A DNA stretch of 64,000 nucleotides, from contig JAYQAJ010000003.1 of the NCBI GenBank assembly GCA_038136775.1, positions 28,302 to 92,301 on the forward strand, read 5' to 3'. The notes beneath the pieces are model-generated. The model saw only the letters and a program-made list of their open reading frames with translations. It did no database searches and was not told the origin of the DNA. Made by a program: the position numbers and the translations under genes. Source of the stretch: Gammaproteobacteria bacterium (GTDB taxonomy: Bacteria; Pseudomonadota; Gammaproteobacteria; Pseudomonadales; Azotimanducaceae). Shown piece after piece: positions 38,552 to 45,634 of the stretch (positions within the stretch are counted from its first letter, which is position 1; each line of letters opens with the position of its first letter).

Positions 38552-41161
38552 GTGGTTAATGCGTTCGTCAAAATTTCTGATTTACTGGCTCAAGCTGCCA
38601 GCGACCACATTATTGTCACGCCAAACGAACGACTGGCCCGGGAACTGCGCAGAGGTTTCAATCAACGGCAACAGCAATGTGGCAACCAAGCTTGGTTAAC
38701 AACTCAGTGTTTGAGTCTAAATCAGTTTTTAACAAGCGAATTCACCAACTGGCAGGACCATTCGAATGATTTAAGGCAACTGCTGCCGGCAAGTGCCCTG
38801 CTATCGCGCTTCTATCAAAGCGCAACACCCACACAACGGCATTTGTCTACAAGCGCTGCCCAAGCCCAAGAGCTGCTTTATCGCTACGACATTGATTTAG
38901 AGCAACTTGAAAGTAATGACACGCAAAGCCAAATGTTTGTCGAATGGGCACGTAGGGTATTTGCTATGCAAACGGCTGAGGAACTATACCCCGCCGAGTT
39001 AGCCAAATTTCTAACTACCGAAAATTATCTTCCCTCCAAGCCCCTGCTGCTCATCGCCTTTGATCATCTGAGCATCACAGAACAGCAGTACCTTATGGCC
39101 GCATATGCGACATCAGGAGTCGCTTACTGGAGCGAACAGGATGAAATGTTGGATTTTGCAGTGGCTTTCTCTGACGTTGCTAAATCGTTCACCAAATCCA
39201 TTGATCCACCGCGAGTAAAACCACGCTTGTATGGCTTCGACTCCCTTGCCGAAGAGCTTGCCGCCGCCGCCGCCTGGGCTGCAGACATTTGTCGGCAACA
39301 ACCCGAAGCTCGAGTCGCAGTGGTTGTACCGCAACTGTCTAAACACTATCTGCGTGTGCAACGACAGTTTGCGGTGACCCTAGACCCGAGCCAAGGAAGC
39401 GCTACTCGGTGCTTCGACCTTTCTGGCGGCACGCCGCTAAATACTCAACCAGCTTGGACTCACGCGCTCGCGTTTCTCACGTGGTGCTCCAAACCAGCAG
39501 ACCAAACCACGATAGAGAACGTCGCGTTCTCACCCTTTCTCAACGCTCCATGGAGTCACCAAACGTTAAAAAATTGGATACCAGGACAGCGCCATTTAGC
39601 TTTGTCTGCCTTGGCAAAAGAGCCCAGTGCAGCACTATTGCTAAAGCATCTCAGCCAAGCCCCGCTCCATGCCAGCTTTGGCTTTTGGCTTACCCATATT
39701 GAAGCCTTGTTAAGTGTTGTCGATTGGCCGTGCATCGGCGATTTGGAGTCCAGCCAGTTTCAAGCGGTAGCGCAGATAAGAGAGACCATAAACGCCCTGG
39801 CTAGACAACACACTGGAGACGAGGAACCAACGACCTACGAAGGCGCCTTGGAACTCTTGGATCTGCATCTGCTGAATCGTGTTTTCGCGCCCCAACGACC
39901 GGCTAGCCAGGTACAAATTCTGGGACTACTGGAAACCACGGGGCTGGAGTATTCCCACCTTTGGGTCAGCGGCATGGACGCCAACAGCTTTCCCCAGAGC
40001 GCGCAGCACAACCCATTTATACCCACCCGCATAGCGCAACAGCATCGCCTGCCAAGAATCACCCCAAATCAAGAACTGGAATTCTCAAACCGGATACTGA
40101 GCCAGTGGCTGCAAAGTGGCGCTGACATATGCTTTAGCTATGTACGCATGCAGGACGCCTATGAAGTCCTTCCCAGCCTACCTGTAACGGCGGTAGCGGA
40201 ACTCATCCCAACAAACGCCAGTGCGCGAGCGAATCTGTCTCAGTACCACCCGTACCTACAAGCCAACGACGTTCCGCTAGAACAGTTCGAAGATTGGAGC
40301 GGCACGCCGCTACCAGACGGCCTTGTACAGGGCGGCAGTAGAATACTACAGGACCAGCTGGAATGTCCGTTCCGCTCCTATGCACGTCATCGCCTAGGTA
40401 TACGCCAAGACCGCGAACCAAGCGACTTTCCCGACGCCTTAGAGCGAGGCATTGTTTTACACAGTGTTATGCAATTGCTTGGCAACCGGTGCAGCACGAG
40501 TGAACAGCTAGTGGCGCTGACATCCGAGGAAATTTATGCGGCTTGCGAACACGTATTGATGCAACGGCGGCCCCTGCCAACGTCATTCGTCGCGAATGAA
40601 TGCGCAAGACTGAGTGCATTAATCGAGCAATGGATAGCAATTGAACAGTTACGCTTCCCCTTTTTTATAGACGCAACTGAGCAAAATTATCAGCTGAATC
40701 TAGAAGGCCTTACATTCAACTTAAGGGTTGACCGTATAGACCGCCAACAAGAAACCTTAACGGTCTTTGACTATAAAACCTCTAGCCGCACCATCAACGG
40801 CGCTACCAAATCTCCGCCAACAGATTTGCAATTGCCCATTTACAGCTTGTTGGATCCAGACATCAGCAATGTGGTGTATGCCTGCATCGGCGACAAAGAA
40901 GTAAAGGCCACAGGTATCGGTGAACAGCCTCTGGATTCCGCAAATAAAGGTGAGCTGAAAATTCATTCGCCGAAAATTTCATGGACGGAACAACGTGAAC
41001 AATGGCGTCAAACACTGAGCGAACTTGCCCGCTCTATACAACAGGGCGACGCTCGCGTGACACCACAGAAAAATGCTTGCCGCTACTGCCACCTGCAAAG
41101 TTTCTGCCGCATTAACGCTGAAAACGAAGACGAGAGTGTCGATGAGCCATTCAACGCCTAG
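38552..41161 (+). CDS. addB: AddB-like helicase-nuclease subunit (PD-(D/E)XK nuclease, Fe-S staple)
   Basis: Degenerate helicase N-terminus (IIVTPNERLAR), LECPF plus C-terminal CRYCHLQSFCR (4 Cys), RVDRID…FDYKT. Confidence 0.85.
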   Translation: MVNAFVKISDLLAQAASDHIIVTPNERLARELRRGFNQRQQQCGNQAWLTTQCLSLNQFLTSEFTNWQDHSNDLRQLLPASALLSRFYQSATPTQRHLSTSAAQAQELLYRYDIDLEQLESNDTQSQMFVEWARRVFAMQTAEELYPAELAKFLTTENYLPSKPLLLIAFDHLSITEQQYLMAAYATSGVAYWSEQDEMLDFAVAFSDVAKSFTKSIDPPRVKPRLYGFDSLAEELAAAAAWAADICRQQPEARVAVVVPQLSKHYLRVQRQFAVTLDPSQGSATRCFDLSGGTPLNTQPAWTHALAFLTWCSKPADQTTIENVAFSPFLNAPWSHQTLKNWIPGQRHLALSALAKEPSAALLLKHLSQAPLHASFGFWLTHIEALLSVVDWPCIGDLESSQFQAVAQIRETINALARQHTGDEEPTTYEGALELLDLHLLNRVFAPQRPASQVQILGLLETTGLEYSHLWVSGMDANSFPQSAQHNPFIPTRIAQQHRLPRITPNQELEFSNRILSQWLQSGADICFSYVRMQDAYEVLPSLPVTAVAELIPTNASARANLSQYHPYLQANDVPLEQFEDWSGTPLPDGLVQGGSRILQDQLECPFRSYARHRLGIRQDREPSDFPDALERGIVLHSVMQLLGNRCSTSEQLVALTSEEIYAACEHVLMQRRPLPTSFVANECARLSALIEQWIAIEQLRFPFFIDATEQNYQLNLEGLTFNLRVDRIDRQQETLTVFDYKTSSRTINGATKSPPTDLQLPIYSLLDPDISNVVYACIGDKEVKATGIGEQPLDSANKGELKIHSPKISWTEQREQWRQTLSELARSIQQGDARVTPQKNACRYCHLQSFCRINAENEDESVDEPFNA

Positions 41162-44100
41162 CGATCAGGCTGCAAGGGACAAAGCCGTCGACCCAACACG
41201 CTCTTGTATTGTGCAAGCGCCCGCCGGCTCAGGAAAAACCACGCTGTTGGTGCAGCGTTACATGAACCTACTTTGTATTGCCGAGCGCCCAGAAGAAATT
41301 CTCGCCATTACATTCACTCGCAAAGCCGCAGCCGAGATGAAACAGCGCATTCTGCTGGCGTTAGAAAAAGACGATGCGGTAGCTGCTCGGGTACGCAAGC
41401 GAGATCTTGAGGCCAACTGGGGAATTCGACAAAACCCCAACAGACTAAAAGTCCAAACCATCGACAGCTTCGCCATGGAACTGGCCACCCGCATCCCCCG
41501 CCAAGACAGTGTTGCCGGCCTAAAATTATTGGATTCAGCTGATCATTTATATGAAGGCGCTTGTGAGGCACTGTTTGAGCAACTCACCAGTGGCCAGTCT
41601 AGCGCACCGTTTGTTGCGGAATTTCTCGCCTTTGTAAACAACGATGCCGCCAATGCAACGTCCCTACTATGTCAAATGCTGGCGCGCCGTGATCAGTGGC
41701 TGGACTTCAATAACGCCTTCGCTTTGGAAAATGCAGGTTCGCCAGAGCAGATTCAACCGTTGCTTGAACAAGCGCTAGTAGAACTCCGTCAACAGGTATT
41801 GCACGCAGCAGCAAATGCTCTGTCCACTGCGCACAAGCAAACTATCCAGTCTCTATACGCTGTAGTTTTTAACGAGGATCCTGCTGCAGATTTACATAGC
41901 GACCTGGCAGCTATAGCTCCCCTGCTGTTAACTGGCAAAAAGCTTCGCAAAAGCATAGACAAACGAGCACATCCGGCTTTCGCCGACAAAACCCTGCGGG
42001 ACACCGTTAAAGCACTACTGGCAGAACTGGCCGCTACCAACATAACTGAGCACTTCCAGCACATTCAGCATCTGCCACCAAGCAGCATAGACCCGACTCA
42101 AAGCGACATTCTTGCAACCGTTAGCCTTTGCCTGGCCCTTTGCGCAGTTGCTCTGCAAGAAATTTTCGCCCAGGAAGGCGCCATTGATTTTACTGAGCTG
42201 CAAATTCGCGCCACTTCAGGCCTGCGCGACGAATTCGGCCCTACCGACCTGGCCCTGTACTTTGACTACAAAATCCACCATCTGCTGGTGGATGAATTCC
42301 AAGACACCTCGCGCGCCCAATTAAATTTCTTTCAATTGCTAACCGAAGGCTGGCAAGCAGATGACAGCAATACAGTGTTTGCAGTGGGCGACCCGATGCA
42401 ATCCATTTATCGATTTCGCGACGCCGATGTGGCTATTTTCGCTCAATGTCGCGATCAGGGATTAGGCAGTCTGCCGTTAGAGCCTCTGGATCTGGTCGCT
42501 AACTTTCGCTCGGCCGCCGAATTAGTTGACTGGAATAACGCTCTGTTTCGCCAACTACTTCCTGAGCACAGCACGCCACGATTGGGCGCAGTGCGCTTTG
42601 GCGTAGCCGAAGCTGCGGCAAACGTAGCTGGTGCAACCGGCGTTATTTGCCAAGCTTATGCCCAAGCAGACACCGAACTTAGCGGGGTTTTGGCCCATGT
42701 CGAATCATTGCAAAGCCATGGCGGGAGCGTTGGCATTTTATGCCGCTCTCGCGGCCATCTACAGCCGCTCCTAGCAGCTCTGACAGACTCCGGCATTAAG
42801 TGGCGATCTACCGACATTGACCTACTTGCCGATCTGCCGGTGATTCAAGATCTCATGAACCTATATCGCATCTTGAAGAATCCCGAACACCGACTGTCTT
42901 GGTTCAGCATACTGCGCAGCCCGCTAGTCGGATTGCGCTTAGCGCAACTACAGCGACTTGAGTCAGTTGAAGACTTCGCCGAGGAATTACCAGCCTTCGC
43001 AGCAGAATTTAATGCGCTACAACGCCTGATAAGCGCCGTTGACTGGGCGCAAAAGCATGCATATGAATTCCCTTTACGTGAAGTTATTGAAGGCTTGTGG
43101 CTCCGTCTAGGCGGCATGAACGCTTATGACACCATCGCCTTAGGGCACGCAATGCGCTGGTTTGAACTACTCGAAGAACTGGGTTCAGATGCTTACCAGC
43201 AACCCATTCTCGAGCGTGCCGTTGAACGATTATTCGCCAACAGCGCAAGCGATGCCCAAGTTGAGGTAATGACTATCCACAAGGCCAAGGGCCTTGAATT
43301 TGACCATGTCATTGTGCCGTTTTTGCACCGTGGTACTCGACACGATGAAGCGCCTCTCATGCTCTGGCAGAGCGATGGCAGGCATCTACTCATAGGTGCC
43401 AAAAGCGACCCCATTCATAAGTGGCTGCACTACGAAGACAAAATCCGAGCAGCTAACGAGCGTAAACGTTTGCTATACGTGGCATGCACTCGAGCGCGCA
43501 ATAGTTTATGGCTTAGTTATCAAAGCGATGATCCAGACAAAGCCAGTGGTATGGCTGAGTGGATTAAAGACCTGGCTCAATATGTAGAAGATGTTAATAG
43601 CACGGCATTGATTAGCGACCAGCCTAAGGCGCCATTGCTAACAGCACTGCCTGAAGACTACCGCTGGACAGCCCCAGCTGTGTCCCACACAACTATAAAT
43701 ACTGATGCCCTATTAGCCTCCGATGATCTAATTGGTAGCCGTTTCGAGGTGGCCCTGGGACACCTGGTTCATAAGGCTATGGCGTGGCTCGCGACCACTC
43801 AAGCCAGCCACTCGGACTTACTACCTGCACGATTGGAAAATTGGACCGCACAGCTGGATGTCGATCCAGGTGAGCTACCCCGGCTCATTCTCCAAGCACA
43901 ACAGCACCTTGAGCAAGTATGCTCAAACAAGCAGGGACAATGGCTTCTGAGCAGTCATGAGGGCGCGCAGTGTGAATGGGCTATCAGCGGCCTGGACAGC
44001 CAAGGACAAGTGCGCAGCGCAATAATCGACCGCTACTTTGTGGTGGGCCAGGAACGCTGGATCATCGACTATAAAACCGCTACACCAAATACAGAGGACA

Positions 44101-44270
44101 CCTCGCAAGAGCAATTTTTGCAAGAGCAATTTTTGCAAGAGCAAAAGGAACGTTATCGACCCCAGCTAGAACGTTATAAACAACTCGTGGCTAAATTATT
44201 TTCTGACGACCCATTACCCATTCGCACCGCTTTGTATTTCACCGGGTTAGGTGAACTGCACGAACTGTAA
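41142..44270 (+). CDS. addA: AddA-like UvrD helicase-nuclease
   Basis: APAGSGKT, LAITFTRKAA.EM, LLVDEFQDTS, VGDPMQSIYRFR, MTIHKAKGLEFD, LLYVACTRAR, nuclease IIDR…IIDYKT. Start at ATG 41142, overlapping addB. Confidence 0.9.
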   Translation: MSHSTPSDQAARDKAVDPTRSCIVQAPAGSGKTTLLVQRYMNLLCIAERPEEILAITFTRKAAAEMKQRILLALEKDDAVAARVRKRDLEANWGIRQNPNRLKVQTIDSFAMELATRIPRQDSVAGLKLLDSADHLYEGACEALFEQLTSGQSSAPFVAEFLAFVNNDAANATSLLCQMLARRDQWLDFNNAFALENAGSPEQIQPLLEQALVELRQQVLHAAANALSTAHKQTIQSLYAVVFNEDPAADLHSDLAAIAPLLLTGKKLRKSIDKRAHPAFADKTLRDTVKALLAELAATNITEHFQHIQHLPPSSIDPTQSDILATVSLCLALCAVALQEIFAQEGAIDFTELQIRATSGLRDEFGPTDLALYFDYKIHHLLVDEFQDTSRAQLNFFQLLTEGWQADDSNTVFAVGDPMQSIYRFRDADVAIFAQCRDQGLGSLPLEPLDLVANFRSAAELVDWNNALFRQLLPEHSTPRLGAVRFGVAEAAANVAGATGVICQAYAQADTELSGVLAHVESLQSHGGSVGILCRSRGHLQPLLAALTDSGIKWRSTDIDLLADLPVIQDLMNLYRILKNPEHRLSWFSILRSPLVGLRLAQLQRLESVEDFAEELPAFAAEFNALQRLISAVDWAQKHAYEFPLREVIEGLWLRLGGMNAYDTIALGHAMRWFELLEELGSDAYQQPILERAVERLFANSASDAQVEVMTIHKAKGLEFDHVIVPFLHRGTRHDEAPLMLWQSDGRHLLIGAKSDPIHKWLHYEDKIRAANERKRLLYVACTRARNSLWLSYQSDDPDKASGMAEWIKDLAQYVEDVNSTALISDQPKAPLLTALPEDYRWTAPAVSHTTINTDALLASDDLIGSRFEVALGHLVHKAMAWLATTQASHSDLLPARLENWTAQLDVDPGELPRLILQAQQHLEQVCSNKQGQWLLSSHEGAQCEWAISGLDSQGQVRSAIIDRYFVVGQERWIIDYKTATPNTEDTSQEQFLQEQFLQEQKERYRPQLERYKQLVAKLFSDDPLPIRTALYFTGLGELHEL
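44105..44144 (+). repeat. 15-bp tandem repeat (gcaagagcaattttt) x2.7, in frame in addA (QEQFL-QEQFL-QEQ)
   Basis: Read directly from the sequence. Confidence 0.9.
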
Positions 44271-44284
44271 CCCCAGACCAATGA

Positions 44285-44312
44285 TTGATTTTTATCGTCA
44301 TGGGTTTAGTAT
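44285..44312 (+). promoter_or_regulatory. Candidate sigma70 promoter for the leader/DAHP synthase transcript
   Basis: TTGATT-N16-TAGTAT (4/6 and 4/6 to consensus), 10 nt before leader ATG 44323. Confidence 0.4.
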
Positions 44313-44322
44313 TCGCGACGTT

Positions 44323-44427
44323 ATGAATTTGATGCCCACACAGCAACCAACAACAGCGTCCAGCGGCGCGGTGACTTCTGTGCGCGCAATCTATTGGCGA
44401 GGCTTTAGCTTTTACCTAAGCATTTAG
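44323..44427 (+). CDS. Putative attenuator leader peptide (Tyr/Trp/Phe-rich)
   Basis: MNLMPTQQPTTASSGAVTSVRAIYWRGFSFYLSI*. Five aromatic codons in the last 11, none in the first 23. Alternative in-frame ATGs at 44281 and 44332. Confidence 0.7.
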   Translation: MNLMPTQQPTTASSGAVTSVRAIYWRGFSFYLSI

Positions 44428-44484
44428 CTCGCCTTTTAAATTTTTGAAGGCAGCGCACTGCCTTCGTTGAACCCCGCGAGGCAG
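44396..44484 (+). promoter_or_regulatory. Mutually exclusive attenuator hairpins
   Basis: GGCGAG(44396-401):CTCGCC(44428-33); GCCTTT(44431-36):GAAGGC(44446-51); GAAGGCAG(44446-53):CTGCCTTC(44458-65); CTGCCT(44458-63):AGGCAG(44479-84). Confidence 0.65.
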
Positions 44485-44504
44485 ACGTCTACCGGGGTTT
44501 TTTT
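44470..44504 (+). terminator. Rho-independent terminator upstream of DAHP synthase
   Basis: AACCCCG(44470-76)…CGGGGTT(44493-99), T7 run at 44498-44504, 80 nt before the DAHP synthase ATG. Confidence 0.8.
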
Positions 44505-44527
44505 ACGCCCGCAGACCGCGCTACAGA

Positions 44528-44573
44528 TCGCAGGAGCAATTTTTGCAAGAGCAATTTTTGCAAGAGCAAAAGG
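44528..44573 (+). repeat. Second copy of the addA 15-bp repeat block, in the DAHP synthase 5' region
   Basis: 45/46 identical to 44103-44148. Confidence 0.9.
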
Positions 44574-44584
44574 GAAATTAAAAG

Positions 44585-45634
44585 ATGCAGCTGGAAAACA
44601 TTAACGTTGAGTCACAAGAAGTGCTGATTACACCAGAACAATTAAAACGGCGGTTGCCAGTTTCAGAAGAAGTGCGCGAAGCAGTCAACGCCTACCGGCA
44701 AAGTGCACGGCAAATCGTCGCTGGAGCAGATAAGCGTCTATTAGTCGTCGTTGGCCCCTGCTCAATACACGACCCAGAGAGTGCGTTAGAGTACGCCCAA
44801 CGGCTGCGACAACTGGCTGAGGAATTAGATGATCGCTTGTTCCTAGTCATGCGGGCTTACTTCGAAAAACCACGCAGTACCGTCGGCTGGAAAGGTCTGG
44901 TAAATGACCCTTATTTGGATGATAGTTTTCGAGTAGCCGAAGGCTTAGAAATCGCACGCAGCCTATTGCTGGACATTTCCAGCTTAGGGCTGCCCTTAGC
45001 AACAGAGGCGTTGGACCCCATCACTCCCCAATATCTACAGGAATTGTTTTCCTGGAGCGCGATTGGTGCGCGCACTACCGAATCACAAACACACCGTGAA
45101 CTGGCCTCGGGCCTTAGCTGCCCGGTAGGTTTTAAAAATGGCACCGATGGCTCCTTAGAAGTGGCATTGAATGCGCTGCAGTCTGCAGCCAAGCCCCATC
45201 GGTTCCTAGGAATAAGCCCCAACGGTCAGGTCAGCGTTGTACATACCCGCGGTAATGATCATGCGCACATCGTACTGAGAGGCGGCGCAGACGGCCCGAA
45301 CTATGACGCCAATAGCATCGCCGAATGCGAATCGGCGCTGCAGAATATCGGCCATCGACCATCGATTATGGTGGATTGCTCTCATGCCAACTCCAACAAG
45401 GACTACCGCAAGCAACGCCAGGTTCTGGAATCCGTCGCCGAGCAGATTGCAGCAGGCAACAAGTTCATTACCGGACTGATGCTTGAAAGCCACTTGCACG
45501 CTGGCAATCAGGGCATTGAGGCGCCTGATAACTTGCGCTACGGCGTATCCGTGACCGACGCCTGTGTGGATTGGCAAGAGACCGAATCGTTATTGCGCCA
45601 TTTGCATGGCCAGATGGCCGTTCGCTTTTCCTAA
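44585..45634 (+). CDS. aroG: Class I-alpha DAHP synthase (AroF/G/H family; isoenzyme not resolved)
   Basis: VVVGPCSIHD, MRAYFEKPRSTVGWKGL, WSAIGARTTESQTHRE.ASG, FKNGTDG, VDCSHANS, SVTDACV. Confidence 0.95.
   Translation: MQLENINVESQEVLITPEQLKRRLPVSEEVREAVNAYRQSARQIVAGADKRLLVVVGPCSIHDPESALEYAQRLRQLAEELDDRLFLVMRAYFEKPRSTVGWKGLVNDPYLDDSFRVAEGLEIARSLLLDISSLGLPLATEALDPITPQYLQELFSWSAIGARTTESQTHRELASGLSCPVGFKNGTDGSLEVALNALQSAAKPHRFLGISPNGQVSVVHTRGNDHAHIVLRGGADGPNYDANSIAECESALQNIGHRPSIMVDCSHANSNKDYRKQRQVLESVAEQIAAGNKFITGLMLESHLHAGNQGIEAPDNLRYGVSVTDACVDWQETESLLRHLHGQMAVRFS

Follow-up and report, generated by a model that had tools for sequence, protein, structure and literature searches.

How is the gene for 3-deoxy-D-arabino-heptulosonate 7-phosphate (DAHP) synthase, the enzyme at the entry of the shikimate pathway, controlled in an uncultured member of the Pseudomonadales? 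This question is raised by a stretch of 64,000 nucleotides (nt) of a Gammaproteobacteria bacterium of the Azotimanducaceae (GenBank assembly GCA_038136775.1, contig JAYQAJ010000003.1, positions 28,302 to 92,301), which was analysed as a whole and is hereafter called the window. Open reading frame (ORF) and Pfam analysis delimited a gap of 314 nt (44271-44584) between an upstream helicase gene and the downstream DAHP synthase gene. A preliminary description of the window, made from its letters, had placed in this gap a candidate attenuator that senses Tyr, Trp, and Phe. Comparison with related loci indicates that this gap very probably holds a transcription attenuator of the leader-peptide (ribosome-mediated) type, acting on the DAHP synthase gene. 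The promoter-like pair, the leader ORF, the RNA segments, the terminator, and the DAHP synthase gene all lie on the forward strand.

Leader peptides with aromatic tails upstream of DAHP synthase

A first component of the predicted attenuator is a leader ORF of 34 codons followed by TAG (44323-44427; stop codon 44425-44427), with the sequence MNLMPTQQPTTASSGAVTSVRAIYWRGFSFYLSI. Its regulatory codons TAT TGG (CGA GGC) TTT (AGC) TTT TAC (44392-44415) correspond to Y24 (44392-44394), W25 (44395-44397), F28 (44404-44406), F30 (44410-44412), and Y31 (44413-44415). The ORF and the packing of its Tyr, Trp, and Phe codons into the last 11 codons, as claimed before, were confirmed in the sequence; none of the first 23 codons is aromatic. 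The probability of five aromatic residues among the last 14 codons is about 0.005, for an assumed background of 8.5%. A longer in-frame ORF, starting at ATG 44281, was rejected, as it overlaps the -35 box of the promoter-like pair described below and a stop codon interrupts the frame in the related locus L164.

Related DAHP synthase loci, 174 in number, were gathered from a one-genome-per-species scan of prokaryotes, a metagenome-contig scan, which added two members (L081 and L110) among the matches listed, and look-ups of the closest proteins (99 to 75% identity). A covariance model (R1) was built on 12 loci with short aromatic-tailed ORFs. Among the 174 loci and the window, it scored 25 loci (21 distinct) upstream of DAHP synthase at 45 to 76 bits and gave no other match above 22 bits, the window containing one copy. 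The weak matches (at most 22 bits) lay antisense to the same element, or near or beyond the 3' end of the gene, and resemble ordinary terminators. All 21 distinct loci originate from related uncultured marine Pseudomonadales. The recurrence of the whole arrangement at 21 distinct loci is therefore far beyond chance.

Leader codon statistics were based on 19 intact, distinct leaders, which are 18 to 52 codons long and carry four to seven aromatic codons. Aromatic residues account for 37.6% of the last 14 codons, compared with 6.6% of the remaining codons. All 19 tails include Trp, usually exactly once, and 18 of them combine it with Phe and Tyr; the last aromatic codon is always located two to four codons upstream of the stop codon. 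Within the clade of the window, the tails read YWRGFSFYLSI (the window and a relative with 86% identity of the DAHP synthase), YWRSFSFFISI (83%), and HWRGFSFYLSS (82%). Among these close relatives, the aromatic codons vary only synonymously or from one aromatic residue to another, except for one Y-to-H change, whereas the first 20 codons are largely different. The aromatic codons are thus kept while the N-terminal part diverges, indicating selection on the aromatic codons and not on a folded peptide. Hence, conservation of these codons across related upstream regions, on which the preliminary description had depended, was found as aromatic-rich tails in 19 leaders with a drifting remainder. 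Indeed, the ORF is a short frame, enriched in codons for the end products of the pathway, that precedes a biosynthetic gene.

In a tree of 167 DAHP synthases, 19 of the 20 leader-bearing genes were grouped in one clade of 25 (support of 92 in the Shimodaira-Hasegawa-like approximate likelihood ratio test), six members of which lack the leader (L002/L003/L172, L052, L060, and L082). Leader presence requires five changes on the tree versus 19 expected by shuffling, which, together with the clade distribution, fits one old origin followed by few losses. Among the gathered loci, no leader was found at the DAHP synthase genes of Pseudomonas, Cellvibrionaceae, Porticoccaceae, and Halioglobus. Comparison with Rfam gave no leader family among the matches up to E = 10 in the region 43800-45000, and no family reached its gathering score in the window (no tRNA, rRNA, riboswitch, or known leader). 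The element does not belong to the Rfam leader families (Phe_leader, Trp_leader, His_leader, and others).

Alternative RNA foldings and their covariation

The second component consists of five RNA segments and an intrinsic terminator. Segment 1 (GGCGAGGCT; 44396-44404) pairs with positions 44426-44433 in the minimum-energy fold, giving hairpin 1:2 (GGCGAG/CTCGCC). Segment 2 (AGCTCGCCTTT; 44426-44436) begins inside the stop codon and can pair with segment 1 or segment 3 (GAAGGCAGC; 44446-44454). The latter can also pair with segment 4 (CTGCCTTCGT; 44458-44467), in the window as a perfect hairpin of 8 base pairs (bp; GAAGGCAG/CTGCCTTC), and segment 4 can alternatively pair with segment 5 (GCGAGGCAG; 44476-44484) as an antiterminator. 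Within the terminator, segment 5 spans the top of the lower stem, the internal loop, and the 5' half of the upper stem. The predicted terminator (44470-44504; -16.1 kcal/mol) is situated between the leader ORF and the gene and is composed of the lower stem AACCCCG (44470-44476)/CGGGGTT (44493-44499), the upper stem AGGC/GTCT, and a run of seven T residues (44498-44504; U7 in the RNA). Such a predicted hairpin is present in all 21 members, and in the 12 members measured the U-run ends 70 to 87 nt downstream of the stop codon. The minimum-energy fold of positions 44390-44510 consists exactly of 1:2, 3:4, and the terminator (-46.1 kcal/mol; z = -4.46; none of 200 shuffled sequences as good). The chain of overlapping stems and the terminator with its T7 tract, both part of the preliminary description, were thus retrieved, with longer alternative helices than initially reported. 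Helix 2:3 comprises 9 bp with one bulge (44427-44436 with 44446-44454) and takes in the G of the stop codon, and helix 4:5 likewise comprises 9 bp with one bulge (44458-44467 with 44476-44484) and makes use of G44476 atop the lower stem of the terminator. The window thus has a relay of six segments, as in his attenuators, which gives three successive hairpins in its stop state and, after a shift in pairing, two in its read-through state; clades without 1:2 possess five segments.

Covariation was counted on two structure-guided alignments (A5 and A6), both fitted to the structure of the stop state. For the helices of this state (3:4 and the lower and upper stems of the terminator), 92 to 94% of the cells are paired, versus 35 to 54% in slid controls, and none of 500 shuffles matched the covariation score; compensatory changes occur in four of the nine pairs of 3:4, and the innermost pair of the lower stem covaries. 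Similarly, the alternative helix 4:5 has 86 to 87% of its cells paired (slid controls 25 to 55%) and compensatory changes in five of its eight pairs, again with no match in 500 shuffles. Covarying stems across relatives, as the preliminary description would lead one to expect, are thus found in 3:4, the terminator, and 4:5. Helix 2:3 and the inner antiterminator helix were judged per sequence, since their register differs between clades. The former emerged as the minimum-energy structure for most of the 20 members when the stretch bounded by the stop codon and segment 3 was folded. When the region from segment 4 to segment 5 was folded alone, 4:5 formed in every intact member (-9.4 to -17.0 kcal/mol). 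Antiterminator folds were computed from only the RNA present before synthesis of the 3' half of the terminator. The 5' arm of the terminator measures 7 nt, two to five of which are paired by these folds in 18 of 20 members (three in the window), the exceptions being L029 (0 nt) and the decayed L166 (1 nt). In most members, this involves an inner helix between a CGG(A)GG-like stretch and CCCCG of the 5' arm. By its covariation and its hold on the 5' arm, 4:5 represents an antiterminator that has been kept in evolution and is predicted to exclude the terminator.

The lower stem ACCCCG/CGGGGU (A6 columns 63-68/88-93; 44471-44476/44493-44498 in the window) is nearly invariant among the 21 sequences, with five fixed pairs and one pair that varies once, to G-U, in contrast with DAHP synthases that are only 60 to 86% identical. 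This invariance may partly be ascribed to the additional pairing of CCCC with the upstream GG(A)GG in the antiterminator, an inner helix that the clade of the window does not possess.

The same data bear on two other explanations of the hairpins. Firstly, the hairpins and the U-run might merely terminate the helicase gene, the short ORF being a chance frame. This gene, located on the same strand, has its 3' end at 44270 and no other terminator follows before 44470, so that its read-through would stop here. Yet, a chance frame would not preserve the position of a stop codon, an aromatic tail, and a Trp codon in 19 diverged sequences, and a plain terminator needs neither a covarying 4:5 nor a conserved promoter-like pair between the helicase stop codon and the ORF. 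This explanation is already contradicted by the conservation and is scarcely credible. Secondly, a bound protein or small molecule might set the switch instead of the ribosome, in a TRAP-like or riboswitch-like manner. Alternative foldings alone do not reveal their trigger, and the lower stem of the terminator is unusually invariant. However, no Rfam family matched, no conserved unpaired motif was present besides the paired segments, and neither the codon bias nor the constant spacing between stop codon and segment 2 would have a role, making such a trigger highly improbable.

A single locus combines loss of the leader ORF with weak alternative helices. In L166 (81% identity of the DAHP synthase; positions 640-860), the leader frame lacks a start codon, and TCG replaces its stop codon TAG. 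The terminator (-18.3 kcal/mol) and 3:4 are intact, whereas 2:3 (-5.7 kcal/mol) and 4:5 (-5.8 kcal/mol) are the weakest of the family. Thus, the ORF and the alternative helices decayed together, in one case from one metagenome assembly. This locus represents either a lineage that lost the regulation or an assembly error.

Proposed mechanism

The transcription start, the stalling of the ribosome, and the response to each amino acid are inferred steps of the following model. Transcription would begin a few bases upstream of the leader ATG (44323), with a ribosome translating the 34 codons behind an RNA polymerase that is still synthesising the segments further on. Under an ample supply of charged tRNA-Tyr, tRNA-Trp, and tRNA-Phe, the ribosome would reach the TAG codon at 44425 and cover segment 2. 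With segment 2 masked, 3:4 would pair, segment 5 would remain free, the full terminator would form, and transcription would end at U7 (44498-44504). When any of these tRNAs is scarce, the ribosome would stall at an aromatic codon (44392-44415), thereby covering segment 1 and leaving segment 2 free. In that case, 2:3 would form first, leaving segment 4 available for pairing with segment 5. Helix 4:5 would take the upper stem of the terminator and the top of its lower stem, closing the 5' arm in an 8-nt loop, and the polymerase would continue into the DAHP synthase gene. RNA that is not translated would adopt 1:2, 3:4, and the terminator.

The geometry of the family agrees with a decision by ribosome position. 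The aromatic codons are located two to 14 codons before the stop codon, which in turn lies 0 to 7 nt upstream of segment 2, within the footprint of a terminating ribosome. The switching logic put forward in the preliminary description is thus supported by the conserved aromatic tail, the spacing between the stop codon and segment 2, the covariation, and the overlap of the antiterminator with the 5' arm of the terminator. Its proposal that untranslated RNA defaults to termination agrees with the fold of the window and does not extend to the whole family, 1:2 being present only in some clades.

In the window, the predicted energies are -10.7 kcal/mol for 2:3, -13.3 kcal/mol for 3:4, and -12.2 kcal/mol for 4:5, adding up, with the terminator, to -29.4 kcal/mol for the stop state and -22.9 kcal/mol for the read-through state. 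Direct-path barriers amount to 9.6 kcal/mol from 2:3 to 3:4 and 14.2 kcal/mol from 4:5 to the terminator. These barriers indicate that the read-through fold would be a kinetic trap set by the order of synthesis, as in classical attenuators.

Several observations weigh against a leader-peptide attenuator that works in this way. In the window, helix 2:3 is weaker than 3:4 and the terminator state lies 6.5 kcal/mol below the read-through state, so that the switch relies on folding order. Within the clade of the window, the overlap of segment 5 with the terminator is confined to its upper part, leaving six bp of the lower stem untouched. A pseudoknot of 4:5 with this remaining 6-bp lower stem, across a connecting loop of 7 nt, may be geometrically allowed in that clade. 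Hairpin 1:2 is clear in the clade of the window, in L001/L024, and in L004, and is not significant elsewhere. All relatives are metagenome assemblies, and one leader-bearing gene (L017) falls outside the main clade. Furthermore, no Shine-Dalgarno sequence precedes the leader ATG, and initiation on leaderless mRNA or behind a 3-nt leader is inefficient in bacteria of the Escherichia coli type. Lastly, the leader of the window contains a single Trp codon, which overlaps segment 1 (TGG CGA GG). As to the pseudoknot, the loop that would connect 4:5 and the terminator measures only about 4 nt in members with triloop terminators, arguing against coexistence of the two, and in the clade of the window the antiterminator pairing would sterically exclude the terminator.

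A role in trans was considered as well, in which the terminated leader RNA of about 185 nt or the peptide of 34 amino acids acts besides or instead of the control in cis. A plentiful supply of amino acids leads to an excess of terminated attenuator RNAs, and attenuator-derived RNAs acting in trans are known in other bacteria. However, nothing in the data indicates a target and the peptide is not conserved over its N-terminal two thirds; a function of this kind is very unlikely.

Probable start of the leader mRNA and amino acids that may be sensed

A promoter-like pair was recognised by sequence inspection, with a -35 box TTGATT (44285-44290) and a -10 box TAGTAT (44307-44312) separated by 16 nt, in accordance with the preliminary description. 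The pair recurs at the equivalent place in relatives, with the hexamers TTGATT, TTGCAA, or TTGCTT and TAGTAT or TACTAT. The leader ATG begins 10 nt downstream of the -10 box in the window, and for 17 of the 21 scanned members the best -35/-10 match ends 6 to 10 nt upstream of the leader start codon. This spacing, together with the lack of a Shine-Dalgarno sequence, points to a leader mRNA that is probably leaderless or carries a leader of 1 to 4 nt. In that case, the first ribosome would load at the extreme 5' end of the emerging RNA and would thereby be locked to the polymerase. No leaderless leader ORF reported for Gammaproteobacteria was found in a literature search.

Repressor-free control that responds to Phe, Tyr, and Trp individually would follow from the proposed mechanism. 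A stricter proposal holds that shortage of each of these three amino acids alone opens the terminator and that the leader is translated, in this gammaproteobacterial lineage, from leaderless mRNA or mRNA with a 1- to 4-nt leader; taken as a whole, it is possible but rather doubtful. A narrower version, in which a genuine leader-peptide attenuator reports only Phe and/or Tyr and the Trp codon is kept for RNA pairing or another reason, draws on the overlap of TGG with segment 1, both in the window (UGGCGAGG) and in L001/L024 (UGGCAAGG). In addition, the tails contain 80 Phe and Tyr codons versus 20 Trp codons, and only Phe limitation altered the transcription of aroR in Corynebacterium glutamicum (PMC11802643). 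Conversely, Trp occurs in all 19 tails, including those of L007, L029, L005, and L167, which have no 1:2, and its position relative to the other aromatic residues varies. Moreover, a ribosome stalls at any hungry codon, so that a single codon can suffice. A sensor restricted to Phe and Tyr is unlikely on balance, albeit worth reckoning with.

Genomic context and neighbouring sequences

The upstream gene (41073-44270) encodes a UvrD-type helicase of 1065 amino acids with a PD-(D/E)XK nuclease domain. The gene that is presumably regulated (44585-45634) encodes a type-I (AroF/G/H-class) DAHP synthase of 349 amino acids (Pfam PF00793; E = 1.6e-95) and is monocistronic here. The gene order helicase, leader, DAHP synthase, nfuA (on the opposite strand), and metH is kept in close relatives with sufficiently long contigs.

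A consensus promoter and terminator scan of positions 43900-44900 listed nothing, as it required at least nine of 12 consensus matches for a promoter and a loop of at most 8 nt for a terminator, both narrower than the elements present. The promoter-like pair was missed because it matches eight of 12 positions by hand count, and the terminator presumably because of the loop limit. The spacer between the -10 box and the leader ATG (44313-44322 in the window) is GC-rich in most members (CCGCGCC, TCGCGAC, CGGCGCC, and GCGCGGC). GC-rich discriminators are typical of promoters shut by guanosine tetraphosphate (ppGpp), which would be unexpected for an amino acid biosynthesis gene.

A search for TyrR boxes (TGTAAA-N6-TTTACA, up to three mismatches) found none near the leader and no excess across the window. 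In L167 (positions 571-653), and identically in L168, 4.2 tandem copies of the 20-nt unit TAAGTAAATTGCTTTTTACT abut and enter the -35 box of the leader. Each unit contains GTAAA-N6-TTTAC, the core of the TyrR box. Judging from these repeats, this lineage may combine control of the TyrR/PhhR type with the attenuator.

A block of 58 nt, holding 2.7 copies of the 15-nt unit GCAAGAGCAATTTTT, is present twice in the window (44098-44155 and 44523-44580; 90% identical). The first copy forms part of the 3'-terminal coding sequence of the helicase gene and encodes QEQFLQEQFLQEQKE. The second copy lies 425 nt downstream of the first, between the terminator of the attenuator and the start of the DAHP synthase gene. 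At this second site, L161 (a 99% relative) contains additional, partly broken units, L162 (86%) contains none, and L163 contains only GGAGCAAAGGGA, whereas the tandem inside the helicase gene is kept in L163 and L167. The second copy looks like a recent, length-variable duplicate of coding sequence in the 5' untranslated region, perhaps seeded by the shared GAGCAAAGG.

Comparison with known attenuators and implications

The layout can be compared with several known leaders. The hisL attenuator of Salmonella and E. coli forms A:B, C:D, and the terminator E:F in the stop state versus B:C and D:E in the read-through state. This relay of six segments is the same as 1:2, 3:4, and 5:6 versus 2:3 and 4:5 here. 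The extra relay stem, which the preliminary description had counted as an addition to the classical design, is therefore not new and equals the his layout. The hisL leader differs in its seven consecutive His codons, its sensing of one amino acid, its Shine-Dalgarno start, and its segment E, which makes up the entire 5' arm of the terminator, in contrast to segment 5 of the present locus, which covers mainly the upper stem; Rfam His_leader gave no match. The enterobacterial leaders of pheL-pheA and trpL-trpEDCBA (Rfam Phe_leader and Trp_leader) work by the same mechanism and likewise combine an intrinsic terminator with regulatory codons for aromatic residues and a stop codon near the next segment. 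In contrast, they have four segments, respond to one amino acid each, and precede genes of the terminal branches instead of the common entry step, again without an Rfam match for the present locus.

The nearest precedent appears to be aroR-aroF of C. glutamicum, the sole experimentally studied DAHP synthase leader found in the literature searched. In this system, as described in PMC4046766 and PMC11802643, a leader ORF with F-Y-F raises transcription upon stalling (Neshat et al. 2014), and aroR responded to Phe limitation only (PMC11802643). As far as the published descriptions allow comparison, the functional likeness lies in a short leader ORF with aromatic codons in front of a DAHP synthase gene. 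In addition, leaderless leader ORFs, as predicted here, are common in Actinobacteria (PMC8079986). The differences are the phylum, the three aromatic codons of aroR without Trp, as opposed to four to seven always including Trp here, and the relay of multiple segments. Among Gammaproteobacteria, attenuators of Vibrio aroF-tyrA have been predicted from structure only (Merino database, cited in PMC1173090), and they too place a type-I DAHP synthase gene behind a predicted terminator/antiterminator pair, to the extent that this source describes them. As far as the account in that source goes, they concern an operon, with no leader peptide family described (PMC1173090), whereas the gene studied here is monocistronic and its leader peptide is conserved.

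The attenuator is hence real, conserved, and uncatalogued, with a classical mechanism, and its principle is not new. As Rfam contains no entry for the family, neither the small ORF nor the RNA switch is picked up by genome annotation; R1 and the alignment of 21 sequences could serve as the seed of such an entry. Two clear hypotheses for bench testing emerge, one from the probable start on leaderless mRNA and the other from the consistent occurrence of all three kinds of aromatic codons.

According to textbooks, DAHP synthase genes in Gammaproteobacteria are controlled through the repressors TyrR and TrpR. In all likelihood, a leader-peptide attenuator at the entry of the shikimate pathway is used, instead or additionally, by a clade of abundant uncultured marine Pseudomonadales. 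If the leaderless start and the reading of all three amino acids were true, the signals of all three end products would be integrated by a single, repressor-free switch at the point where the pathway begins.

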